Part shown: piece by piece, positions 22,884 through 45,878 of the stretch
Numbering within the stretch: position 1 is the first letter of the stretch
How the letters are laid out: each line of letters begins with the position of its first letter
DNA from: Escherichia phage UFV-AREG1
Sequence record: KX009778
Strand: one strand, 5' to 3'
DNA length: 64,000 nucleotides
Position numbers and translations under genes: made by a program
Notes under the pieces: model-generated
Seen by the model: the letters and a program-made list of their open reading frames with translations, nothing else
What the model was told of the DNA's origin: nothing
The model's database searches: none

Positions 22884-22914
22884 TTTGTGTTCCTCATGTT
22901 ATGTCAGTAAAACT

Positions 22915-22944
22915 ACTATAACACAATACGAGGGACTTGTAAAC
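22915..22944 (-). promoter_or_regulatory. T4 early-type promoter (GTTTACA-N17-TATAGT) upstream of the 96 aa ORF
   Basis: -35 at 22938..22944 and -10 at 22915..22920 in minus sense. Confidence 0.55.
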
Positions 22945-25001
22945 TACATTTTGAACTTTTTAGACATTCTGTTGATGTTAACCAAAGAAGCTAAGATTTG
23001 AGAAACTTCGCTTTCCTCTTCTTTTGATTCTTCTACAAGGAATTGATTAAATCCAGCCATTGGACGAACTTCACCAGTTTCCATCAGATGGTCGCCATCA
23101 TATACTGATTCTTCTAATTGTTCAGAAGGAGGAACGATTGTACCTTCGATTAGATACTTATTATAAGCAGTTTCTTTCATCATGTACGTACTTACTTTAT
23201 TAATCTTCAGTAAAATTCCACGTGGTAGAATAACTTCAGCTTCTGATGGAAATCCTGATAAATGACCCGGAACGATAACTTTAACTCGTTCAGCTCCTTT
23301 AATTACCATACCTACATTAGTTTCAGCGTCTTCATTCGCATATGTAGAATGACTACCCATATGCATTAAATCTTCAGCATCAACTGAACCTTCTCCTTCA
23401 CCAGAAAATACTGCTCCGGAATCATCTAAGGCCATATAATTTTTACCATATTCACCGAAGATATTTGGCTTGAGTGAAGTAGATACAAAGTTCTTGAAAT
23501 AGAACATTTTATTTTCTATATTATGACGCAAAGTTTTAAAGGTAACTTCTTGCCCACGATAAAGAGTAGTTCCTGGAGGAAGAACTGAACCTTTAGAAAA
23601 TGCAGAATCCAGCGTCTCAATATGTTTAATAGCTCGTTCCATATATTCTTCACGGGTAGAATCAGGTTTACCTAAAAGGAATGAGTTCATTTCAACATAT
23701 GAATCTGCACAATAATCTTCAATTACATCAGATTCAGCCTGAGTTAATCCTTTTGGAGTTACTTCAGTGCTTGCATATTCATATGCCTGAGCAGCAGATT
23801 CATCAATTAATTTATAAATTCCATTCATTACAAATTGAATAATAGCTGTCTTTTCATCTGGTGTAGCTTTAGAACCTTTAACTAAATCATTGATAATTTT
23901 CTTAATAACATCAAAACTATTAGAAATATTAATGTCAGCAAGATCGCTTAAAATTTTATCAGTTTTATAATCAAAGAATTCTTTATTCTTTAAATATTCT
24001 TGAGAACCTTGATATGTTATATCGCTCTGCAGCTTGATAGATGGATCGCGTAAACGTGCATGGGCCAATGCAATATGATTTCGGAAGCTTTCTAGTTCAT
24101 AATCGCTAGATTTAAAACGAGAAGCACTTCTCATACCACCGATAGCTCCTTTGCTAAAGTTTGAACCAATCTGAATAACGCCAGAGTTCATTGATCCTTC
24201 TGCTTTATATACCGGAACTTTAGATTCAAACTCTTGATATTTCTTAGCAGCGAAGCTATCACCCTGGAGTGAAGCGTCAACAGTAGAATATTGAGCTTGG
24301 GCTGCTAATCGACGACTGATTTTAGTTTTCTGAATAACAGCTTGATCCGTGCGCTTATCATTTTCTAAAGCAATAGAAGCAGCAACAGCAACAGCTTTAG
24401 GAACAGCATTACCTGTTTTAACGTCTACATAAACATCACCAACCTTTGATTCAACTTTTGTGAATAACTCGGTTGAAATAGGAGGTACACCTGGAATGTC
24501 TTCTAATTTGGCATTTTTACGGTAAACCATAATATATGCGTACTTTTTATCATAATCCCAGATTTCCTTTAAAAGAACATATCGACCTGCTCCTTTAGTA
24601 CGTACTAAACGGTCAGCAATAACTTGCATTTGCCGAGCAGCGCCATTTGTTTTACTTTTTAGTACGCGGAATAGGCATGCATCAATTTTATACTGTTTCA
24701 TTGTTTGAAGAGCAGTATCAAAAACAGCATTAATGACGCCAATTGGATTTCCACCCAAGTTTTTAAGCTTAACTAATGATAGTTTCTCATTAACACCTAT
24801 CATTACGATATGCATCATTTTGTCGCCTGGCTTAACGTTTTTATTCGTATCACCGCCAGAGGTGTATGTACAAAATCTAAATCCAGGAAGCACGCTTTCT
24901 TCACCTGCTTGAATAGCAAAAATTTGAGGTATTTTATGCTTAGGATTTAAGTTAACAACCGGCGCCGAAGCGCCGTCAAATAATTCTGTAATAAGTTCCA
25001 T
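22944..25001 (-). CDS. Alt-family ADP-ribosyltransferase paralog (alt.-2 position)
   Basis: 685 aa; N-terminus MELITELFD… shared with upstream Alt; ART motifs LYRGQ, FVSTSL, EAEVILPRG. Confidence 0.85.
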   Translation of the reverse strand: MELITELFDGASAPVVNLNPKHKIPQIFAIQAGEESVLPGFRFCTYTSGGDTNKNVKPGDKMMHIVMIGVNEKLSLVKLKNLGGNPIGVINAVFDTALQTMKQYKIDACLFRVLKSKTNGAARQMQVIADRLVRTKGAGRYVLLKEIWDYDKKYAYIMVYRKNAKLEDIPGVPPISTELFTKVESKVGDVYVDVKTGNAVPKAVAVAASIALENDKRTDQAVIQKTKISRRLAAQAQYSTVDASLQGDSFAAKKYQEFESKVPVYKAEGSMNSGVIQIGSNFSKGAIGGMRSASRFKSSDYELESFRNHIALAHARLRDPSIKLQSDITYQGSQEYLKNKEFFDYKTDKILSDLADINISNSFDVIKKIINDLVKGSKATPDEKTAIIQFVMNGIYKLIDESAAQAYEYASTEVTPKGLTQAESDVIEDYCADSYVEMNSFLLGKPDSTREEYMERAIKHIETLDSAFSKGSVLPPGTTLYRGQEVTFKTLRHNIENKMFYFKNFVSTSLKPNIFGEYGKNYMALDDSGAVFSGEGEGSVDAEDLMHMGSHSTYANEDAETNVGMVIKGAERVKVIVPGHLSGFPSEAEVILPRGILLKINKVSTYMMKETAYNKYLIEGTIVPPSEQLEESVYDGDHLMETGEVRPMAGFNQFLVEESKEEESEVSQILASLVNINRMSKKFKM

Positions 25002-25004
25002 GAT

Positions 25005-27098
25005 TTATCCTTGAACGAACTTGTAAGGCATGTTTGTAATATCTATGCAAGACGCAATAATTCCAAGAGATGATTCTACTTTCTGTTTAATATTTGATGA
25101 AACAAATGATGCAAAGTCAACTCTGTCTTCTATTTCAATATCACCTGTCATTGCAACCAATTCACCAGTTTCCATTAAATGGTCTCCATCATAGATTACC
25201 GATTCGGTGAGCTCTTCCGTGGTCATAACTTCAGCTTGAATGAGTTTTGTATTATTAGATGTTGTTCCGTCATTATTAGAAGCATCGATTATTTTATTAA
25301 CTTTGACCATCAATCCACGCGGTAGAATAACTTCAGCTTCTGTTGCTATTCCGAGACTTCCTGGATATACAACATTAACTTTATGAGCTCCATCAATTGC
25401 CCATCCTATTTGAACTTTAACATATTCAGGATTTTCTTTATACGCTCTTATTTCGTTTGGATTAATAGTTATTCCTTCTTCATTTTTATCAACTGTTAAT
25501 TCATTGCGAGCTCCTGGTTCTAAAAGACCAATACCAGCATGTGTGATTCCAAAACGTCCAAAAATGATAGGAGTTAAAGAAGTAGATACAAAATTTCTGA
25601 AGTAGAACACTTTATTTTTAACTAACGCTTCATATATAGGAGCAGTCATACTTTGAGCACGATAAACTGTAATGCCTTCTGGTATACGGTCACCATTTTC
25701 AAAAGCTGAATCTAAGTTATTTATAGCAGATTCAATTTCTTTTTCACTCATTACATCATATCGTTCTGGATTGTAACGACCTAAAAGAAGATTATTGATG
25801 TCAGTATATCCTGAACCGCAATATTCTCTAATGCCACGCTTTTGTGATGGAGTATATTTAGAACCATCGCGGGCAATAGTAATATCAATCATTGGACCAG
25901 CACCAATTCCAGAAAAACTGTAAATCATTCGTTTGAGGAATTTAGTTTTTGCTGCGTTCCAGGAATTTTTAGTTATTTCTTCCCAGACTTCATCTGGTTG
26001 TCCTTTACGATTTTTATTATGATTAGCAAGCCATTTATCTTTATAATCTTCAAAGAATTGATTTACAGCTGCTGCGTATTTCTCTAAACATTTTATTGAA
26101 GTAGTTGGTTCATTTTTAATTGCATTAAAAATTACTTCTTTAATTTTTTCTGAAACTTCACCGACTTGACTCATTGGAAAGAATTTATAATCATAGTGAA
26201 GTTCATCTGCCGTTCCTTCAGCAATAATTTTTGCTGCCTTTGTTTTAGAAGCTAATGAATTAATTCCAATTTTCATTTCTTCTGCTTCGGGAATTAAAGG
26301 TGCAGTAGCTGGTTTATTAAAATTAGCTGCTGTAGATTCATACTTCTGGAATAATTCACTTTCAAATCTAGAAGATTCCAATGACTGACTTTGTGCAATT
26401 GCTCTACGGGAAATTTTAACTTTAACGATTACAGCTTGGTCAGAACGTTTATCATTTTCTTGCGCAATAGATGCTGCAATTGCTTCATTTTTAGTTACTT
26501 GAGCTCCAGTATCTTTATTGATATAAACATCACCGACCTTCGATTCAACTTTAGTAAAGAGTTCAGTGCTAATTTCTGGAACTCCTGGAATGTCTTCTAG
26601 TGATACATTTTTGCGATGTATAAGAATATATGCATACTTTTTATCATAATCCCAGAGTTCCTTAAGAAGGACGTATCTGCCACCTGAACGACTACGGATA
26701 AGTCTATCAGCAATAACTTGAATTTGTCGAGCTTGGCCAGCAGTTTTAGACTTAAGAATACGAAGCATACAAGCATCAATTTTATACTGACGCATTGTTT
26801 GCATTGCAACAGTAAAAACTGAATTGATATAATTAATTGGGCTTGGCCCAAGACCTTTCAATTTAGCAATTGAACCTTTAGCAGTTAATGTAAAAGGAAC
26901 AATATGCATCATTTTATCGCCCATCTTTAAATCACGATTAGTATCACCTCCAGATGTATAGGTACATAAACGAAAGCCTGGTTGTTCAATTGCGTCATCG
27001 ACATGAACTGAAAAAATTTGTGGTATCTTCTTCTTTGGATTTAAGTTTGTAATCGGAAGAGTAGTATCTTCGTCAAATAATTCTGTAATAAGTTCCAT
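25005..27098 (-). CDS. alt: ADP-ribosyltransferase Alt
   Basis: 697 aa; ART motifs VYRAQ, FVSTSL, EAEVILPRG; minus-strand late promoter upstream, consistent with a virion-packaged Alt. Confidence 0.88.
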   Translation of the reverse strand: MELITELFDEDTTLPITNLNPKKKIPQIFSVHVDDAIEQPGFRLCTYTSGGDTNRDLKMGDKMMHIVPFTLTAKGSIAKLKGLGPSPINYINSVFTVAMQTMRQYKIDACMLRILKSKTAGQARQIQVIADRLIRSRSGGRYVLLKELWDYDKKYAYILIHRKNVSLEDIPGVPEISTELFTKVESKVGDVYINKDTGAQVTKNEAIAASIAQENDKRSDQAVIVKVKISRRAIAQSQSLESSRFESELFQKYESTAANFNKPATAPLIPEAEEMKIGINSLASKTKAAKIIAEGTADELHYDYKFFPMSQVGEVSEKIKEVIFNAIKNEPTTSIKCLEKYAAAVNQFFEDYKDKWLANHNKNRKGQPDEVWEEITKNSWNAAKTKFLKRMIYSFSGIGAGPMIDITIARDGSKYTPSQKRGIREYCGSGYTDINNLLLGRYNPERYDVMSEKEIESAINNLDSAFENGDRIPEGITVYRAQSMTAPIYEALVKNKVFYFRNFVSTSLTPIIFGRFGITHAGIGLLEPGARNELTVDKNEEGITINPNEIRAYKENPEYVKVQIGWAIDGAHKVNVVYPGSLGIATEAEVILPRGLMVKVNKIIDASNNDGTTSNNTKLIQAEVMTTEELTESVIYDGDHLMETGELVAMTGDIEIEDRVDFASFVSSNIKQKVESSLGIIASCIDITNMPYKFVQG

Positions 27099-38189: not shown

Positions 38190-38217
38190 AAAGTCCTCAT
38201 GTTATGTCAGTAAGTCT

Positions 38218-38247
38218 ACTGTAACACAACACGAGAGACTTGTAAAC
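38218..38247 (-). promoter_or_regulatory. T4 early-type promoter (GTTTACA-N17-TACAGT) upstream of alc
   Basis: -35 at 38241..38247 and -10 at 38218..38223 in minus sense; near-identical to the module at 22892..22944. Confidence 0.55.
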
Positions 38248-39865: not shown

Positions 39866-41044
39866 TTAAAAATATTTTTTAAAACTCATCATAACTTTAT
39901 CATCAACATCATTATCAATCTGTGCAACAAGGTAAGATGACAGTTCTACTTCTTGCGGCGCGGATTGAACATTATCAGAATTAAGATATTCACGAATCCA
40001 AGGATATGGGTGTTTAACCGGAGCATCGGTAATTGGGCATGGAAGACCACACTGTTTCATACGAGATACAGTTAAGTAATCAATAAAGCTCCACATGCTA
40101 TTTGTATTTAATCCAGGAACATCGCCATCTTTAAATAAATGAACTGCCCAATCTTTTTCTTGGCGGTTAACTTCCATGAAAATATCAACTGCTTCTTGTT
40201 CACACTCTTGAGCAATTTTAACCCATTCATCGCCGTCAGTGCCAAGTTGAAGTTGACGAATAATATATTGGGTGCCTTTAAGGTGAAGCTGCTCATCACG
40301 TGCAATGAACTTCATAATCTTGGCATTACCTTCCATAATTTCCATGTTCTTATGGAAGTTAAAGGTACATGCGAAAGATACATAAAAACGAATAGCTTCC
40401 AATGCGTTGATTACATGCAAACAGAGGTAAAGAGATTTCATTAGCTCACGCTTCCAATATGTCTCATGCTCAATAGCATCTTCAATAACGTCTTCGTCTG
40501 CATTAATTTCTTTTTGGTATTCGATATCAGCTTTAGCGTTTTCCCAATAACGAGTTTTAATCAGAACATCATCATAATAACGTCCAATTGATTCAGCACG
40601 TTTCATAATAGCTTCATCTAATACAATCTCATCAAACACCTTCGATGGATCAGTATAAAGATTTCGCATGATATGTGTATATGAACGGCTGTGAATAGTT
40701 TCACTAAAAGTCCACGTAGCAACCCATGTATCAAGGCTTGGGTCTGAAATTAATGACATAAGTACAGCAGATGGCGCGCGACCCTGAATGCTATCCAAAA
40801 GTGATTGATACTTCAGGTTATTAGTAAAAATATTCTGCTGATACTGAGGAAGTTTATTAAATTGCGCAGCATCCATCATCAAGTTTACTTCTTCAGGACG
40901 CCAGAAAAATGATAATTGCTTTTCAGTCAAATCTTCAAAAACTTTATGGCGTTGAATATCATAACGCGCAATACCAAGACCTGAACCGAAGAACATAGGT
41001 TCTTTTAAAACATCAACTGGATTTGTATTAAAAACTGTGCTCAT
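39866..41044 (-). CDS. nrdB: Ribonucleotide reductase small subunit NrdB (intron-less)
   Basis: 392 aa continuous ORF with no intron interruption. Confidence 0.93.
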   Translation of the reverse strand: MSTVFNTNPVDVLKEPMFFGSGLGIARYDIQRHKVFEDLTEKQLSFFWRPEEVNLMMDAAQFNKLPQYQQNIFTNNLKYQSLLDSIQGRAPSAVLMSLISDPSLDTWVATWTFSETIHSRSYTHIMRNLYTDPSKVFDEIVLDEAIMKRAESIGRYYDDVLIKTRYWENAKADIEYQKEINADEDVIEDAIEHETYWKRELMKSLYLCLHVINALEAIRFYVSFACTFNFHKNMEIMEGNAKIMKFIARDEQLHLKGTQYIIRQLQLGTDGDEWVKIAQECEQEAVDIFMEVNRQEKDWAVHLFKDGDVPGLNTNSMWSFIDYLTVSRMKQCGLPCPITDAPVKHPYPWIREYLNSDNVQSAPQEVELSSYLVAQIDNDVDDKVMMSFKKYF

Positions 41045-41095
41045 AAATTTTCCACTTAGTTAATAGATAGTGACTCGTCCATGAGTCAAATTATA

Positions 41096-42085
41096 TCATA
41101 ATTTACAGGATGAACAATCTTCAGCTTTTGGAGTTTCTATTTCATAATCATCAGTACCAGAACCATCGCGGGTATTATGATAATAGAAATTTTTTCCACC
41201 AAAATACCAAAAATACAAAAGGTCATCAATCATTATTGACATTGGAACCTTTCCTTTTGGAAAAATCTGCGGGTCATAGTATGTATTCGCCGAAGCTGAT
41301 TGACATACCCATTTCAGCATAATAGCTACCTGCGTGAGATAAGGTTTATTACCTTTCTTAGCTAATTTCCATGTATAATCATAGAGGTCTATGTTATGCT
41401 CAATATTGGGCACGACTTGATTAAAGGAGCCCTCTTTTGATTCTTTAACAGAGACTGGTCCACGTGGAGGCTCGATACCGTTTGTACTGTTAGAAACTTG
41501 GGAAGATGACTCACATGGCATAAGTGCTGATAATGTGCTATTACGGATGCCAAAGAGCTTAAGGTCTTCCCGCAGCGACGACCAGTCACAAACGTATTTT
41601 GGAGCTGCGATTTGGTCAATCTTTTTATTGTACCAGTCGATAGGTAATTCGCCTCGAGACCAACGAGTGTCTGAATAATATTCGCAAGGTCCTTTTTCTT
41701 TGGCGAGCTTAATGGATGCTTTAATGAGTCCATACTGTAATCTCTCAAATAGTTCATGTGTTAAATCGTTAGCATCTTCATAAGAAGCAAAGTTACTTGC
41801 CAGCCAAGCTGCATAGTTGGTAACACCTACACCGAGGTTACGACGCTTTTTAGCTTTTTCTGCTTCAGGAACTGGATATCCTTGGTAATCCAACAGATTA
41901 TCAAGAGCACGAACTTGAACTTCTGCCAATTCATTAATTTTATCTTGGTCTTGCCAGTCAAAATTATCCAGTACGAATGCAGAGAGAGTACAAAGGCCCA
42001 CTTCACCTTTGTTTTCAATAACTTGTATTGTTGTATACTCATCATCTTCGTAAAATTCATCTACAAATTCATAATCAATATTCAT
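41096..42085 (-). CDS. nrdA: Ribonucleotide reductase large subunit NrdA, C-terminal fragment
   Basis: 329 aa; own ATG embedded in the last codons of the HNH gene; 29 aa N-terminal extension then the GLCTLSAF… region and the NrdA C-terminus (…CSSCKL). Confidence 0.8.
   Translation of the reverse strand: MNIDYEFVDEFYEDDEYTTIQVIENKGEVGLCTLSAFVLDNFDWQDQDKINELAEVQVRALDNLLDYQGYPVPEAEKAKKRRNLGVGVTNYAAWLASNFASYEDANDLTHELFERLQYGLIKASIKLAKEKGPCEYYSDTRWSRGELPIDWYNKKIDQIAAPKYVCDWSSLREDLKLFGIRNSTLSALMPCESSSQVSNSTNGIEPPRGPVSVKESKEGSFNQVVPNIEHNIDLYDYTWKLAKKGNKPYLTQVAIMLKWVCQSASANTYYDPQIFPKGKVPMSIMIDDLLYFWYFGGKNFYYHNTRDGSGTDDYEIETPKAEDCSSCKL
41880..41992 (-). repeat. Direct repeat B, copy 2 (113 bp, nrdA coding)
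   Basis: Identical to 43007..43119. Confidence 0.9.
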
Positions 42086-42918
42086 TTAATTCTTCTACCT
42101 TTTTTCGAGATATTCCTAGAGCTTTAGATGCTCGATGTATTGATTGATATTCTATACCGTTTATTTTTACAGCAATTAAGTTATGGGGTTTTAATCCCTT
42201 TGGATGAGGTTTACTGACGTATTCTTGATTATCGTTTTCAGAGATGTTATCAAGCTTTCGACACTTAAAGCCTTTATGTTGAGACCTTTTGCCTTTGCAT
42301 ACGGCCGACATTGCCGAAGCATTGAGTGAATGTAGTTCGCAAAATTCTCTTAGGCCTTTATGGATTTCTTCATGACCGTCCGGGAAAGTAAATACCCAAG
42401 TTGTTTGAAGTTTTTCTCTATGCTCGTCAGTTACCGGAATACCTTTGTTCCAAGCTGGTTTGCCTTTATTATTTTCAGATACAGAAATAGCCAATTTTCT
42501 TCTAAGCCACCCATGGCGTTTATTGGTGTTCTTTCGTTCAATATTATCTTCAGAATAAACACACATCATATTAGCGGCAAATACCAATTTATGATTATCT
42601 GGATATATCTTTACTAATAATTGATGAGCTATGTAATGCTCTTCGGGTGTCAAATCTACCAGGTTTTCCTTTGTATCAGAACCACCAATACACAGAGGTA
42701 TAATATGGTGTGATTCGGTATAGCAATCTAATTTTCTGTTCTTAGCTTTAGAAATAAGGTTATTGTAAATTTTAGAATAATCCATAACTTTTCCTCTTGT
42801 TATGGATTATTTATTAACGGACTGTGTACTTTATTTGCTTTGAATTATACCGCCAGGATTAGCTTCATAAAACTTAGCTACATCCGACTTCTTAATTTTG
42901 ATTAAACGGGTTTGTTGG
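41993..42918 (-). mobile_element. HNH homing endonuclease cassette inserted in nrdA, including diverged nrdA-like flanks
   Basis: Unique segment bounded by repeat copies A2 and B2; holds the HNH ORF, its RBS and diverged flanking nrdA-like codons. Confidence 0.75.
42075..42785 (-). CDS. Free-standing HNH homing endonuclease (Mob-like), paralog of the uvsW-adjacent HNH
   Basis: 236 aa; HNH motif ESHHIIPLCIGG…NLVDLTPEEHYIAH; RBS agagga upstream; C-terminal DNA-binding-like region. Confidence 0.85.
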   Translation of the reverse strand: MDYSKIYNNLISKAKNRKLDCYTESHHIIPLCIGGSDTKENLVDLTPEEHYIAHQLLVKIYPDNHKLVFAANMMCVYSEDNIERKNTNKRHGWLRRKLAISVSENNKGKPAWNKGIPVTDEHREKLQTTWVFTFPDGHEEIHKGLREFCELHSLNASAMSAVCKGKRSQHKGFKCRKLDNISENDNQEYVSKPHPKGLKPHNLIAVKINGIEYQSIHRASKALGISRKKVEELNEY

Positions 42919-43005
42919 CTATTCACATCATTTGTTGGAATAGCAATTTCACAGCACAAGTTACTCTGACGAATAGGTGCCTTTTCACGAATAAACGGAG
43001 TATAG
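42919..43005 (-). repeat. Direct repeat A, copy 2 (87 bp, nrdA active-site region coding)
   Basis: Identical to 43142..43228; abuts repeat B copy 1 with 1 nt between. Confidence 0.9.
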
Positions 43006-44487
43006 ACCTTGGTAATCCAACAGATTATCAAGAGCACGAACTTGAACTTCTGCCAATTCATTAATTTTATCTTGGTCTTGCCAGTCAAAATTATCCAGTA
43101 CGAATGCAGAGAGAGTACACAATCCAATTTCAGCATCAGGACTATTCACATCATTTGTTGGAATAGCAATTTCACAGCACAAGTTACTCTGACGAATAGG
43201 TGCCTTTTCACGAATAAACGGAGTATAGTTATTCGTATTATCAATGAACTGCACATAAATCCTTGCTGTTCCTGAGCGTTCAGTCATGAGCAATTCAAAT
43301 AGTTCACGGGCTTTAATACGCTTTTTACGAATATTAGGGTCTTTTTCTGCTGCTTCGTATAATTCACGGAAACGGTCTTGGTCTTTAAAATAAGAATAAT
43401 AAAGCTCGCCACCCATTTCATGTGGACTGAACAAAGTAATATAATCGTTCTTTCCGAATCGTTCCATCATCAAATCATTCAGTTGAACACCATAATCCAT
43501 ATGACGAATGCGGTTTTCTTCTACGCCTTTGTTATTTTTCAAAACGAGAAGATTTTCAACTTCCAAATGCCAAATAGGATAATAAGCAGTAGCAGCGCCG
43601 CCACGAATTCCACCCTGTGAACATGATTTAACTGCAGTCTGAAAATGTTTCCAAAAAGGAATAACACCAGTATGACGTACTTCACCCATGCCAATTTTAG
43701 AACCTTCAGCACGAATCATACCAACATTAATACCAATTCCAGCGCGTTTAGAGATATATTCAACAATTGAAGCGGAAGCCTTATTGATAGACTTCAATGA
43801 ATCTCCTGCCTCAATAACGACGCATGAACTAAACTGCCGAGTTGGAGTACGACAGCCAGCCATAATAGGAGTTGGTAATGAAATCTGTCGAGTAGATACC
43901 GCTTCATAAAAACGAATAACGTGTTTTAATCTATCAACAGGTTCATCTTGATGCAATGCCATTCCAATAGTCATAAATGCAAACTGTGGAGTTTCATAAA
44001 TTTGACCAGTGGTTTTATCTTTAACGAGATATTTTTCTTTTAATTGCATCGCCCCGGAATAAGTAAATTCCATATCCCGCTCGTGCTTAATTTTTGATTC
44101 TAAAAATGTAATTTCTTCTGCTGAATATTTTGACAGCAGTTCAGGGTCATATTTACCTTCATTTACACAGTAAGAAATATGGTCAATAAATGAACGTGGT
44201 TCATATTGTCCGTAAACATGCTTACGAAGAGCAAACATTAAACAGCGTGCAGCTACATATTGATAATCAGGTTCTTCAACCGAAATAGAATTCGCAGCGG
44301 CCTTAATGACAATAGTCTGAATATCATCAGTGGTCATTCCATCACGGAGATATGATTTAATATTTTCATATAATTCATAAGGATCTACAGATGTTCCTTC
44401 AGCTGCCCAAGATAAAACTTTAATAATTTTTTGTGGGTCAAAGCTCTGAGAAACACCACTACTTTTGATAACATTAATTAATTGCAT
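42985..44487 (-). CDS. nrdA: Ribonucleotide reductase large subunit NrdA, N-terminal fragment
   Basis: 500 aa; contains active-site SNLCCEI and continues through repeat B copy 1, then frameshifts into repeat A copy 2 and stops (…DYQGLYSVYS*). Confidence 0.8.
   Translation of the reverse strand: MQLINVIKSSGVSQSFDPQKIIKVLSWAAEGTSVDPYELYENIKSYLRDGMTTDDIQTIVIKAAANSISVEEPDYQYVAARCLMFALRKHVYGQYEPRSFIDHISYCVNEGKYDPELLSKYSAEEITFLESKIKHERDMEFTYSGAMQLKEKYLVKDKTTGQIYETPQFAFMTIGMALHQDEPVDRLKHVIRFYEAVSTRQISLPTPIMAGCRTPTRQFSSCVVIEAGDSLKSINKASASIVEYISKRAGIGINVGMIRAEGSKIGMGEVRHTGVIPFWKHFQTAVKSCSQGGIRGGAATAYYPIWHLEVENLLVLKNNKGVEENRIRHMDYGVQLNDLMMERFGKNDYITLFSPHEMGGELYYSYFKDQDRFRELYEAAEKDPNIRKKRIKARELFELLMTERSGTARIYVQFIDNTNNYTPFIREKAPIRQSNLCCEIAIPTNDVNSPDAEIGLCTLSAFVLDNFDWQDQDKINELAEVQVRALDNLLDYQGLYSVYS
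43007..43119 (-). repeat. Direct repeat B, copy 1 (113 bp)
   Basis: Identical to 41880..41992. Confidence 0.9.
43142..43228 (-). repeat. Direct repeat A, copy 1 (87 bp)
   Basis: Identical to 42919..43005. Confidence 0.9.
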
Positions 44488-44804: not shown

Positions 44805-45021
44805 ATTGTTTTTCCGTTAATACAGTAATATCATAGTAACAATCTGAAGAAGTTTTAACTGTGGAAATTTTATTATCAAAATACTCACGAGTCATTTTAT
44901 GAGTATAATATTTTTTACCATAAATGATAATAGGCTGTTCTGGTCCTGGAACTTCTAACTCGCTTGGGTTAGGAAGTGTAAAAAGAACAACGCCAGAAGT
45001 ATCTTTAAATCGTAAAATCAT
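44758..45021 (-). CDS. Hypothetical protein (nrdA.2 position)
   Basis: 87 aa ORF. Confidence 0.6.
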
Positions 45022-45878
45022 ATTGCCATTTTCCCTTTAATTGCCGGATGCGATTCATAATTTTCAAGGATAAAATCTTTCGGTTTCATGTATTCAGTTA
45101 ACCAGTAAAGCTGTGTTTCGGTGTCACAATTTTCAAACTCTATAGGCCAATCAATTTTAAGTTCGCACAGTTCTTTAGGCTCACGACGTAAAATTTCTTT
45201 ACATTGTTCTACGTGATTCATATAGATATGAGTATTACCACCAGAAAATATCAAATCTCCTGGGATAAGATTACACATCTTAGCCATAATATGCGTCAAG
45301 GCAGCGTACGAGGCAATGTTGAATGGCAAGCCCAAGAAAACATCTACACTTCTTTGGTACCACTGTAAATCAAGATAACCATTACGCACATTAAACTGAT
45401 AGAACATATGACAGGGTGGTAATGCCATTTGATTGATTTCAGCTGGATTCCATGCTGAAACGATTTGACGTCGATCAGTTGGTAATTTTTTAATACGATC
45501 AATAGTTTCAACTAATTGATCCACACCACCGAAATCACGCCATTGTTTACCATATATAGGACCCAGTTCACCACTATGATATCCTAGGTCTTTAGCTTGG
45601 TTTTCATAATTGTCATCCCAGATAGTTTTACCTTGAATAAGACTACCGTGAGTAAGAAGACGTAAATCATTAACATTGGTAGAACCGGAAATAAACCATA
45701 AAAGCTCAGCAATGCATGCATTCCAGGCGAGCTTCTTAGTTGTTACTGCAGGAAAACCTTTACTTAAATCCCAGCGTAATTTAGTACCGAACAAAGCAAT
45801 TGTTCCTGTGCCCGTTCGGTCATCGGTTTCATAGCCATTTTCAAAAATGTCTTTAATTAAATCTTGGTATTGTTTCAT
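45018..45878 (-). CDS. td: Thymidylate synthase (intron-less)
   Basis: 286 aa continuous ORF; active-site region ALPPCH; no group I intron. Confidence 0.95.

Follow-up and report, generated by a model that had tools for sequence, protein, structure and literature searches.

Apart from 223 extra nucleotides, the nrdA locus of Escherichia phage UFV-AREG1 (KX009778) is a known mobE-type genes-in-pieces nrdA, in which a MobE-family cassette lies between the catalytic Cys/Glu loop and the next active-site Cys and supplies both tails of the divided protein. The 223-bp tandem unit is the unique part of the locus, and it is explained either by a misjoin in the assembly or by recombination that left a short-lived by-product. 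We put at about one half (0.5) the probability that the extra bases have a technical origin, with intact-allele and split-allele sequences of a mixed lysate joined head to tail.

Repeat structure of the nrdA locus

In nrdA sense (minus strand) the order of segments is A1(87 bp)-x(22 bp)-B1(113 bp)-T-A2-HNH cassette(926 bp)-B2 (Table 1). This order, with exact copies of A and B, is the one given by the original prediction, and script comparison of the record sequence confirmed it to the base: A1 equals A2 over all 87 nt and B1 equals B2 over all 113 nt. The cassette, put at about 930 bp, measures 926 nt. No exact direct repeat longer than 35 nt other than A and B exists in the window (the whole 64,000-nt stretch of DNA that was analysed), and chance cannot account for exact copies of 87 and 113 nt. 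The unit A1-x-B1-T is 223 nt long (3n+1), and the allele measures 1901 nt here as compared to 1678 nt for a simple split allele.

Table 1. Positions of the features at and around nrdA in the window.
Feature	Position	Strand	Length	Description
nrdB	39866..41044	minus	392 aa	no intron; partner gene downstream
nrdA C-terminal ORF (nrdA-b)	41096..42085	minus	329 aa	acidic N-terminal tail, then second barrel half
B2	41880..41992	minus	113 nt	exact B1 copy; within nrdA-b
HNH cassette	41993..42918	minus	926 nt	basic NrdA-a tail codons, HNH gene and acidic NrdA-b tail codons
HNH gene	42075..42785	minus	236 aa	MobE family; 11-nt overlap with nrdA-b start
Basic NrdA-a tail codons	42831..42917	minus		QQTRLIKIKKSDVAKFYEANPGGIIQSK then stop; pI 10.0; A2 frame
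A2	42919..43005	minus	87 nt	exact A1 copy; cassette directly adjoining
nrdA N-terminal ORF	42985..44487	minus	500 aa	ATP-cone, all-alpha, first half of barrel domain
Junction base T	43006	minus	1 nt	single base between B1 and A2
B1	43007..43119	minus	113 nt	exact B2 copy; encodes CTLSAF...DNLLDYQG
x	43120..43141	minus	22 nt	in uninterrupted nrdA alleles only; cassette takes its place in split alleles
A1	43142..43228	minus	87 nt	encodes ...YTPFIREKAPIRQSNLCCEIAIPTNDVNS, catalytic Asn/Cys/Glu loop; identical in intact alleles slur03 and T4T

The two nrdA ORFs have the extents given in the original prediction. The 500-aa N-terminal ORF continues through A1-x-B1 until the junction puts it into another frame, and it ends 6 codons inside A2 with the C-terminus ...DYQG+LYSVYS; the C-terminal ORF re-encodes part of the same region, and the fragments overlap by about 38 residues, as anticipated. 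Cys437/438 and Glu439 are found in fragment a (ending at residue 449) and Cys32 in fragment b, while the overlap-region Cys (GLCTLSAF) is present in both. The Pfam barrel domain is divided between the two ORFs at profile positions 1-268 and 219-523. Fragment b begins with the acidic tail MNIDYEFVDEFYEDDEYTTIQVIENKG (pI 4.05). The basic tail coding sequence is out of frame with the 500-aa ORF. In this phage mobE is absent between nrdA and nrdB.

Recombination between the A copies had been predicted to yield a cleanly split gene and recombination between the B copies an intact nrdA, and in silico both products were obtained. Deletion between the B copies gave a 2265-nt in-frame nrdA of 754 aa that aligned without gaps to the intact nrdA of phage slur03. 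Deletion between the A copies gave a 3169-nt allele that aligned without gaps to the split allele of phage REP2, and this canonical allele has the basic as well as the acidic tail.

The cassette is a mobile element of the MobE family

The HNH protein shares 46% identity with T4 MobE across 127 aa of the nuclease half (BLASTP, E 3e-30) and matches the homing endonuclease family phrog_655 (E 2.8e-60). Its N-terminal HNH domain is thus homologous to that of MobE, as in members of the MobE family, and its C-terminal half contains a NUMOD-type module (PF22083, I-HmuI_NUMOD-like, 32.2 bits with a cut-off of 27). The Pfam HNH profile scored 17.9 bits, below its cut-off of 21.4. The cassette is clearly mobile, because copies that differ by 2-4 nt in 926 are found in Mosigvirus backbones whose flanks are about 20% diverged. 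It has a sporadic distribution, occurring in about 30 of about 800 nrdA-bearing records. The HNH protein is identical to widely spread copies, and the endonuclease is apparently active. Searches of the cassette for promoter, terminator and late-promoter motifs gave none above shuffled expectation.

The known system closest in form is the nrdA-a/mobE/nrdA-b genes-in-pieces reductase of Aeromonas phage Aeh1, reportedly also the subject of work by Friedrich et al. in 2007. In Aeh1, an HNH (mobE) insertion at this nrdA site produces two genes (PMC3045599; PMC2988022). Cys431/Glu433 are in one fragment and Cys31 in the other, the tails have pI values of 10.4/3.8 and reassemble the enzyme, and the basic C-terminal tail of fragment a is essential for activity (Crona et al. 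2010, PMC3045599). By comparison with the published description of Aeh1, the locus studied here has the same free-standing MobE-family HNH gene inside nrdA, separating two ORFs and overlapping the nrdA-b start. The split falls in the same place, with the catalytic Cys/Glu about 10 residues before it and the next active-site Cys about 30 residues after it, and the layout of a basic C-tail for fragment a and an acidic N-tail for fragment b is shared; in the window as recorded the acidic tail is present, whereas the N-fragment is not fused to the basic tail. The two systems also differ in host genus and in the extra upstream 223-bp repeat with its uninterrupted target.

The A-HNH-B allele without x-B1, which the original prediction proposed to look for among T-even genomes, was found in at least 27 sequenced coliphage records, among them REP2/REP3, PEC04, HY01, IME537, vB_EcoM_112, fPS-2, F26, FL12-44, AV111 and F2. 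Every other context examined of the identical HNH protein is a simple split allele of this kind. These alleles share with the window the cassette (HNH protein 100% identical in many; 2-4 nt/926), the insertion point and the 329-aa C-fragment, but they are 223 nt shorter, contain no x and no second A or B, and encode an N-fragment of 477 aa (474 in Mosigvirus) with the basic tail at its end. The earlier opinion that this is not a described arrangement is therefore mistaken for the HNH split, described in Aeh1 (PMC3045599, PMC2988022) and present in these coliphages, and correct for the 223-bp tandem unit.

T4 mobE resembles the HNH gene of the cassette in its homologous N-terminal HNH half, its position in the nrd operon and its free-standing form. 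In contrast to the in-gene insertion seen here, T4 mobE is inserted between nrdA and nrdB, has another C-terminal half and targets nrdB. T4 MobE is a nicking HNH homing endonuclease whose nick lies 122-126 nt downstream of its own insertion boundary (Wilson & Edgell 2009, PMC2790892). We confirmed in sequence the insertion boundary used for this distance.

The B1-T-A2 junction is found in a single record

The novel junction has the sequence ...GATTACCAAGG-T-CTATACTCCG... (B1 end, T, A2 start). Neither about 800 T4-like phage records nor any other copy of the cassette examined contains it. Matches to the junction sequence were found in 559 phage records, always as 2 separate pieces and never joined. 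Exact and degenerate scans of the JGI metagenomes returned 0 matches. The IMG/VR scans also returned 0 matches, a result that carries no weight because a control shows that IMG/VR contains no split allele. Exact protein look-up gave no record for the 500-aa N-terminal ORF, for a 101-aa ORF or for the gp37 of this phage. Independent sequence support for the junction was thus found neither in the phage collection nor in the JGI metagenomes.

At the junction there are 0 nt of homology and 1 extra base, while the right side (B2-R, where R is the sequence after B) is seamless. One homologous and one non-homologous junction are the signature of one-sided double-strand-break repair, and an end-to-end contig join predicts the same signature. 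The T matches neither the base after B (A in all Tequatrovirus alleles) nor the base before A (A), and B1+T aligns to B2+A with a terminal mismatch at the position where A is expected. A crossover at the shared TAT microhomology predicts GGATATAC and was rejected on the observed GGTCTATAC. The T could also have been a synonymous GGT variant of an intact donor, an idea left unsupported by the sampled alleles (19/19 Tequatrovirus GGA; Mosigvirus GAT). Programmed frameshifting to rescue the tail was likewise rejected, with no slippery sequence at the junction.

Among 80 independent pairs of one intact and one split allele, none was identical in A and B (0/80), and the B haplotype of the window matched 0 of 18 sampled alleles. 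The uninterrupted target from A-40 through x to B+60 is identical to that of slur03 and L024. As recorded, the phage has in cis an endonuclease that appears active and a homing site that appears complete. The distance of the B|R boundary (41880|41879) from the exact-identity edge is 113 nt, and from resumed homology after the cassette it is 125 nt, the latter being about the distance from insertion boundary to cut in T4 mobE. Near B|R we found no cassette-linked 'immunity' polymorphisms; B-proximal variants occur in both allele types, with the exception of an ACC CTT AGC recoding in 5/16 split alleles. Neither boundary shows likeness to the T4 MobE nick region of nrdB.

Origin of the 223-nt unit

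From the anatomy, the family membership, the uniqueness and the junction properties we infer, as a leaning, that the duplication has a technical origin. Intact and split alleles would both have been present in the sequenced lysate, and the end of an intact allele (...A-x-B) would have been joined to the start of a split allele (A-HNH-B...) during assembly or finishing and not in the phage. At this heterogeneity the contig of a circularly permuted genome would break, so that its first base lay 87 nt ahead of the cassette and its last 113-114 nt past x; if its ends were then joined or rotated without trimming, the two alleles would stand in tandem. An error at the end of a contig or read would explain the stray T where A is expected, and the copies of A and B would be identical because they were built or polished from the same reads. 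We lean this way because the junction is absent from the phage records and metagenome scans, because it has no homology and a T in place of the expected A, because the copies are exact although none of the sampled intact and split pairs is, and because the frameshift removes a basic tail that is essential in Aeh1. In addition, a genome with an uninterrupted target in cis to a mobile cassette should convert itself quickly.

Several observations weigh against a technical join. The overlaps are unequal, 87 and 113 (114) nt, whereas a de Bruijn-graph path through a bubble predicts equal overlaps of length k. This rejects such a path for that class of assembler only, so that greedy/overlap or long-read contig ends, or manual joining, are what fits. 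The technical join needs a lysate that held the intact besides the split allele, and the agreement of 125 nt with the T4 MobE nick distance would be a coincidence. No other duplication and no other sign of poor assembly was seen in the 64-kb window. The repeats (87, 113 nt) are shorter than common k-mers and reads, and a real duplication would therefore assemble exactly as recorded.

The main competitor, which we regard as a substantial though lesser possibility, is a real duplication formed as a by-product of homing with illegitimate repair on one side. In a mixed infection the endonuclease would break intact nrdA at or near the B|R boundary, and the nick, met by a replication fork, would leave a flush end ...A-x-B. 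The right side (B-R) would be repaired by homology from a cassette-bearing genome, while the left end would be joined without homology, with one filler nucleotide, to new DNA starting 87 nt upstream of the cassette. The product would carry both alleles in tandem and would be metastable, resolving to a clean split (A×A) or an intact nrdA (B×B). Conceivably, then, a MobE-type endonuclease gene (of predicted activity) and an uninterrupted homing region were trapped naturally in one genome. According to the account in PMC2988022, T4 offers a documented case of homing in which double-strand breaks were repaired illegitimately on one side (Parker, Belisle & Belfort 1999). As that account has it, the endonuclease element acquired in T4 intron homing is likewise flanked by one junction with homology and one without, and such repair is a route by which endonuclease elements reach ectopic positions; those events were selected with homology missing on one side, whereas here homology is complete. 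The by-product is also favored by this T4 precedent, by the 125 nt between B|R and resumed homology as compared to the T4 MobE nick at 122-126 nt (PMC2790892), by a cassette that is demonstrably mobile, by the otherwise clean assembly of the window, and by the fact that both resolution products are viable alleles.

Much of the same evidence counts against the homing by-product. No second example occurs among about 800 T4-like nrdA records or in any other context of the cassette, and the match at 125 nt was noticed post hoc. With full homology available on the left (A + 1259 nt of left flank L), an illegitimate join would be very rare. The by-product also requires a donor and a recipient with the same A and B, as in 0/80 sampled pairs, or later homogenization of the copies. 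The B|R boundary has neither a cassette-linked polymorphism nor a MobE-like motif, and the N-fragment is without the tail that is essential in Aeh1. The by-product would survive only if A1-x-B1 were no longer a substrate, for instance if cleavage or binding took place across the B|R junction, which this copy has lost. An in-gene insertion leads one to expect a target that spans x, and in that case self-cutting would produce a clean split within a few cycles. Between an assembly artefact from a mixed population and a trapped homing intermediate, the artefact is at least as likely.

A spontaneous 223-bp tandem duplication (A-x-B-A-x-B) that preceded homing, with the cassette later entering the second copy only, would account for the shared A and B haplotype of both copies and for a cassette placed exactly at the x of the second copy. 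We consider it improbable: two rare events are needed, the initial one inactivates nrdA by frameshift, and a pure tandem duplication predicts A at the junction where T is observed. Both x sites would be targets, so that double cutting would delete the duplication, and the A-x-B-A-x-B allele was not found in any record searched. More improbable still is a selected design, either a redundant two-piece reductase with overlapping fragments or an intact site kept as a decoy or immunity element. Overlapping fragments do sometimes complement each other, and the overlap-region Cys is in both. Against this, the arrangement is not conserved, its exact copies are young, T4 recombination would resolve repeats of this length, and the broken frame costs the N-fragment a basic tail essential in Aeh1 (PMC3045599). 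The proposal of genes-in-pieces with built-in redundancy is not supported, given the loss of the basic tail and the singleton status of the arrangement.

Implications for split nrdA genes in T-even phages

Should the duplication prove an artefact, nrdA here is an unremarkable instance of a selfish-element insertion of a known kind, and the two fragments in the record have to be corrected to 477 and 329 aa. A real duplication would be a rare view, caught in nature, of aberrant homing repair in a T-even phage. The right-hand breakpoint (41880|41879) would then mark a nick site about 125 nt from the insertion, as for T4 MobE, and would show at no cost the place at which this MobE-type enzyme breaks its target. 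Such a phage would behave as a 'heterozygote' able to resolve itself into an intact or a split nrdA allele, and in it simple segregation would suffice to follow how a homing endonuclease is lost or gained; this would be useful to specialists and would add no new principle. The coliphage split allele itself, with its Aeh1-like tails and a cassette nearly identical across two phage genera, is a good and little-noticed E. coli system for the model in which the tails reassemble the enzyme.

Structure of the nrdA locus

The segments of the window's nrdA gene follow the order A1-x-B1-T-A2-cassette-B2, an exact match by script to the original prediction, and this observation is confirmed. Intact alleles have the form A-x-B and split alleles the form A-cassette-B. 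The repeat unit is 223 nt long and shifts the reading frame, so that the N-terminal ORF (500 aa), which spans A1-x-B1, stops six codons inside A2; downstream of it come an HNH ORF of 236 aa and a C-terminal ORF of 329 aa. In-silico removal between the B copies yields nrdA in frame (754 aa); the product of removal between the A copies is collinear with REP2's split allele, with a gap-free alignment. No exact repeat above 35 nt other than A and B exists within the window.

Segments of the window's nrdA locus, from script comparison
Feature	Position	Strand	Length (nt)
A1	43228..43142	minus	87
x	43141..43120	minus	22
B1	43119..43007	minus	113
Junction base T	43006	minus	1
A2, identical to A1	43005..42919	minus	87
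HNH cassette	42918..41993	minus	926
B2, identical to B1	41992..41880	minus	113

Judged by its sequence, the window phage is a Tequatrovirus (T4-like); the 8-kb flanking stretches match the best records at ∼97% and the gene order is as in T4. The mobE gene usually found between nrdA and nrdB is absent, with a spacer of 51 nt, and neither nrdB (392 aa) nor td (286 aa) contains an intron (39866-41095, 45018-45878), which leaves the in-gene cassette as the sole mobile element of the nrd-td block. Elsewhere in the window, a 54-nt direct repeat (91% identical; 22891-22944 and 38194-38247, 15.3 kb apart) lies beside gene ends and may be a common regulatory or intergenic element. Two adjoining minus-strand ORFs of 685 aa (22944-25001) and 697 aa (25005-27098) are diverged tandem paralogues, with DNA patches 70-80% identical at a spacing of ∼2.1 kb, and from their position are probably alt-type ADP-ribosyltransferase genes.

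The HNH cassette and the split allele

By sequence, the HNH protein belongs to the MobE family of homing endonucleases: it shares 46% identity with T4 MobE across the nuclease half and matches both an I-HmuI NUMOD-like module, over the Pfam cut-off, and the PHROGs homing-endonuclease family phrog_655. At least 27 phage records contain the split allele, which is 223 nt shorter than the window's; among them are REP2/3, PEC04, HY01, IME537, vB_EcoM_112, fPS-2, F26, the FL series, and Mosigvirus AV111. All other genomic contexts of the identical HNH protein have a 477- or 474-aa N-fragment, the HNH gene, and a 329-aa C-fragment. Between Tequatrovirus and Mosigvirus the cassette differs at 2-7 nt (AV111 loci L003/L013 and phage loci L006 and L010 against window 41993-42918), while the nrdA flanks of these backbones are ∼20% different; a separate comparison across flanks of that divergence gave 2-4 differences in 926 nt. 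A near-identical cassette in backbones so diverged is therefore an actively spreading element, and indicates that its apparent spread between genera is recent.

A second, diverged cassette lineage has 49 differences at loci L017/L018 and a protein 89.8% identical in F26. Just 3' of the cassette, a synonymous recoding at segment B positions 5-11, ACC CTT AGC (Thr-Leu-Ser), is carried by 5/16 split alleles (L004, L006, L007, L019, and L022) and 0/8 intact alleles; it looks like the ancestral donor flank, eroded by recombination in the remaining split alleles, including that of the window. An 8-nt direct repeat, CCAACAAA, occurs at the end of A and, at a spacing of 20 nt, among the opening bases of the cassette (42911-42938, minus); it may be a trace of microhomology from the ancestral insertion into nrdA. 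The cassette is common among isolate genomes and Logan/ENA assemblies (58 collection blocks); in IMG/VR the cassette junction is absent and 30/30 recovered nrdA loci are uninterrupted.

The nrdA gene of Aeromonas phage Aeh1 is split by mobE (PMC3045599; PMC2988022; PMC3653736), with Cys431/Glu433 in the N-terminal fragment a, Cys31 in the C-terminal fragment b, and tails of pI 10.4 and 3.8 that are required for activity (PMC3045599). The canonical coliphage split allele has the same architecture in split position and in basic and acidic tails. Its fragment a contains the catalytic Cys/Glu and ends in the basic tail QQTRLIKIKKSDVAKFYEANPGGIIQSK (pI 10.0), and its fragment b begins with the acidic tail MNIDYEFVDEFYEDDEYTTIQVIENKG (pI 4.05) and has the next active-site Cys at residue 32. 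The split-gene arrangement is already of a known kind. The earlier view that the locus is not a described arrangement fails for the split gene, given Aeh1 and the at least 27 coliphage records, but holds for the 223-nt tandem unit, to which uniqueness is confined. The window frameshift separates the N-fragment from the basic tail, which is essential in Aeh1. An intact B1-T-A2 junction was not found in the phage collection, where all 559 matching records hold two separate pieces, nor in JGI metagenomes as an exact or degenerate pattern; its absence from IMG/VR, a collection without any split allele, carries no weight.

Origin of the tandem duplication

The B1-T-A2 junction has zero homology, and the T differs from both flanking bases. 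The base after B is A in 19/19 sampled Tequatrovirus alleles, and the base before the A segment is A. Because T stands where A is expected, the alignment of B1+T with B2+A ends in a mismatch. Neither crossover at a nearby TAT microhomology nor a pure tandem duplication would yield the observed junction. The A and B segments vary among phages, yet the window copies are exact, and the window's B haplotype was not found among 18 sampled alleles. Among 80 independent intact × split Tequatrovirus allele pairs, none matches exactly in both segments, so the two window copies have one common source, by way of a recent duplication, homogenisation, or one read set. Around the insertion site A1-x-B1 is not distinguishable from ordinary uninterrupted alleles, which would place a normal homing site in cis to an endonuclease that appears functional.

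We favor a technical origin of the 223-nt duplication, at a probability of about 0.5. A lysate would have contained both the intact and the split allele; this heterogeneity would have broken a contig so that it began 87 nt ahead of the cassette and finished 113-114 nt beyond x, and its ends would have been joined or rotated untrimmed, leaving tandem alleles. Such a join explains why the copies are exact and the arrangement unique, why the junction lacks homology and has an odd terminal base, why the frame is broken, and how an implausible target comes to lie in cis. Against it, a de Bruijn path predicts equal overlaps and those here are unequal (87 vs 113), a mixed lysate has to be assumed, and the remainder of the window appears clean. 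Under the main rival, somewhat less likely, the duplication is real and arose when homing was repaired illegitimately on one side, as is known to happen in T4 (PMC2988022). The nick that T4 MobE makes in T2 nrdB lies 122-126 nt from the enzyme gene's insertion boundary (PMC2790892), and in the T4 MobE/T2 comparison (locus L020, 5201-5330) the start codon of nrdB is where homology resumes. The right-hand breakpoint between B and the nrdA sequence after it (window 41880|41879) lies 125 nt from the resumption of homology past the cassette. A replication fork meeting a nick of this kind would produce precisely the flush ...x-B end, and loss of the cut site from the junction copy could then account for its persistence. 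However, the 125-nt match was noticed post hoc and may be coincidence, neither a motif nor a cassette-linked polymorphism points to a site at this breakpoint, and normal repair had full homology at hand. It is unlikely that duplication came first and homing second, and a selected redundant design is more improbable still. The duplication is a singleton for which a technical cause is slightly more likely than a biological one. Were it real, it would represent a variant of a known process and be moderately interesting to specialists in homing endonucleases.
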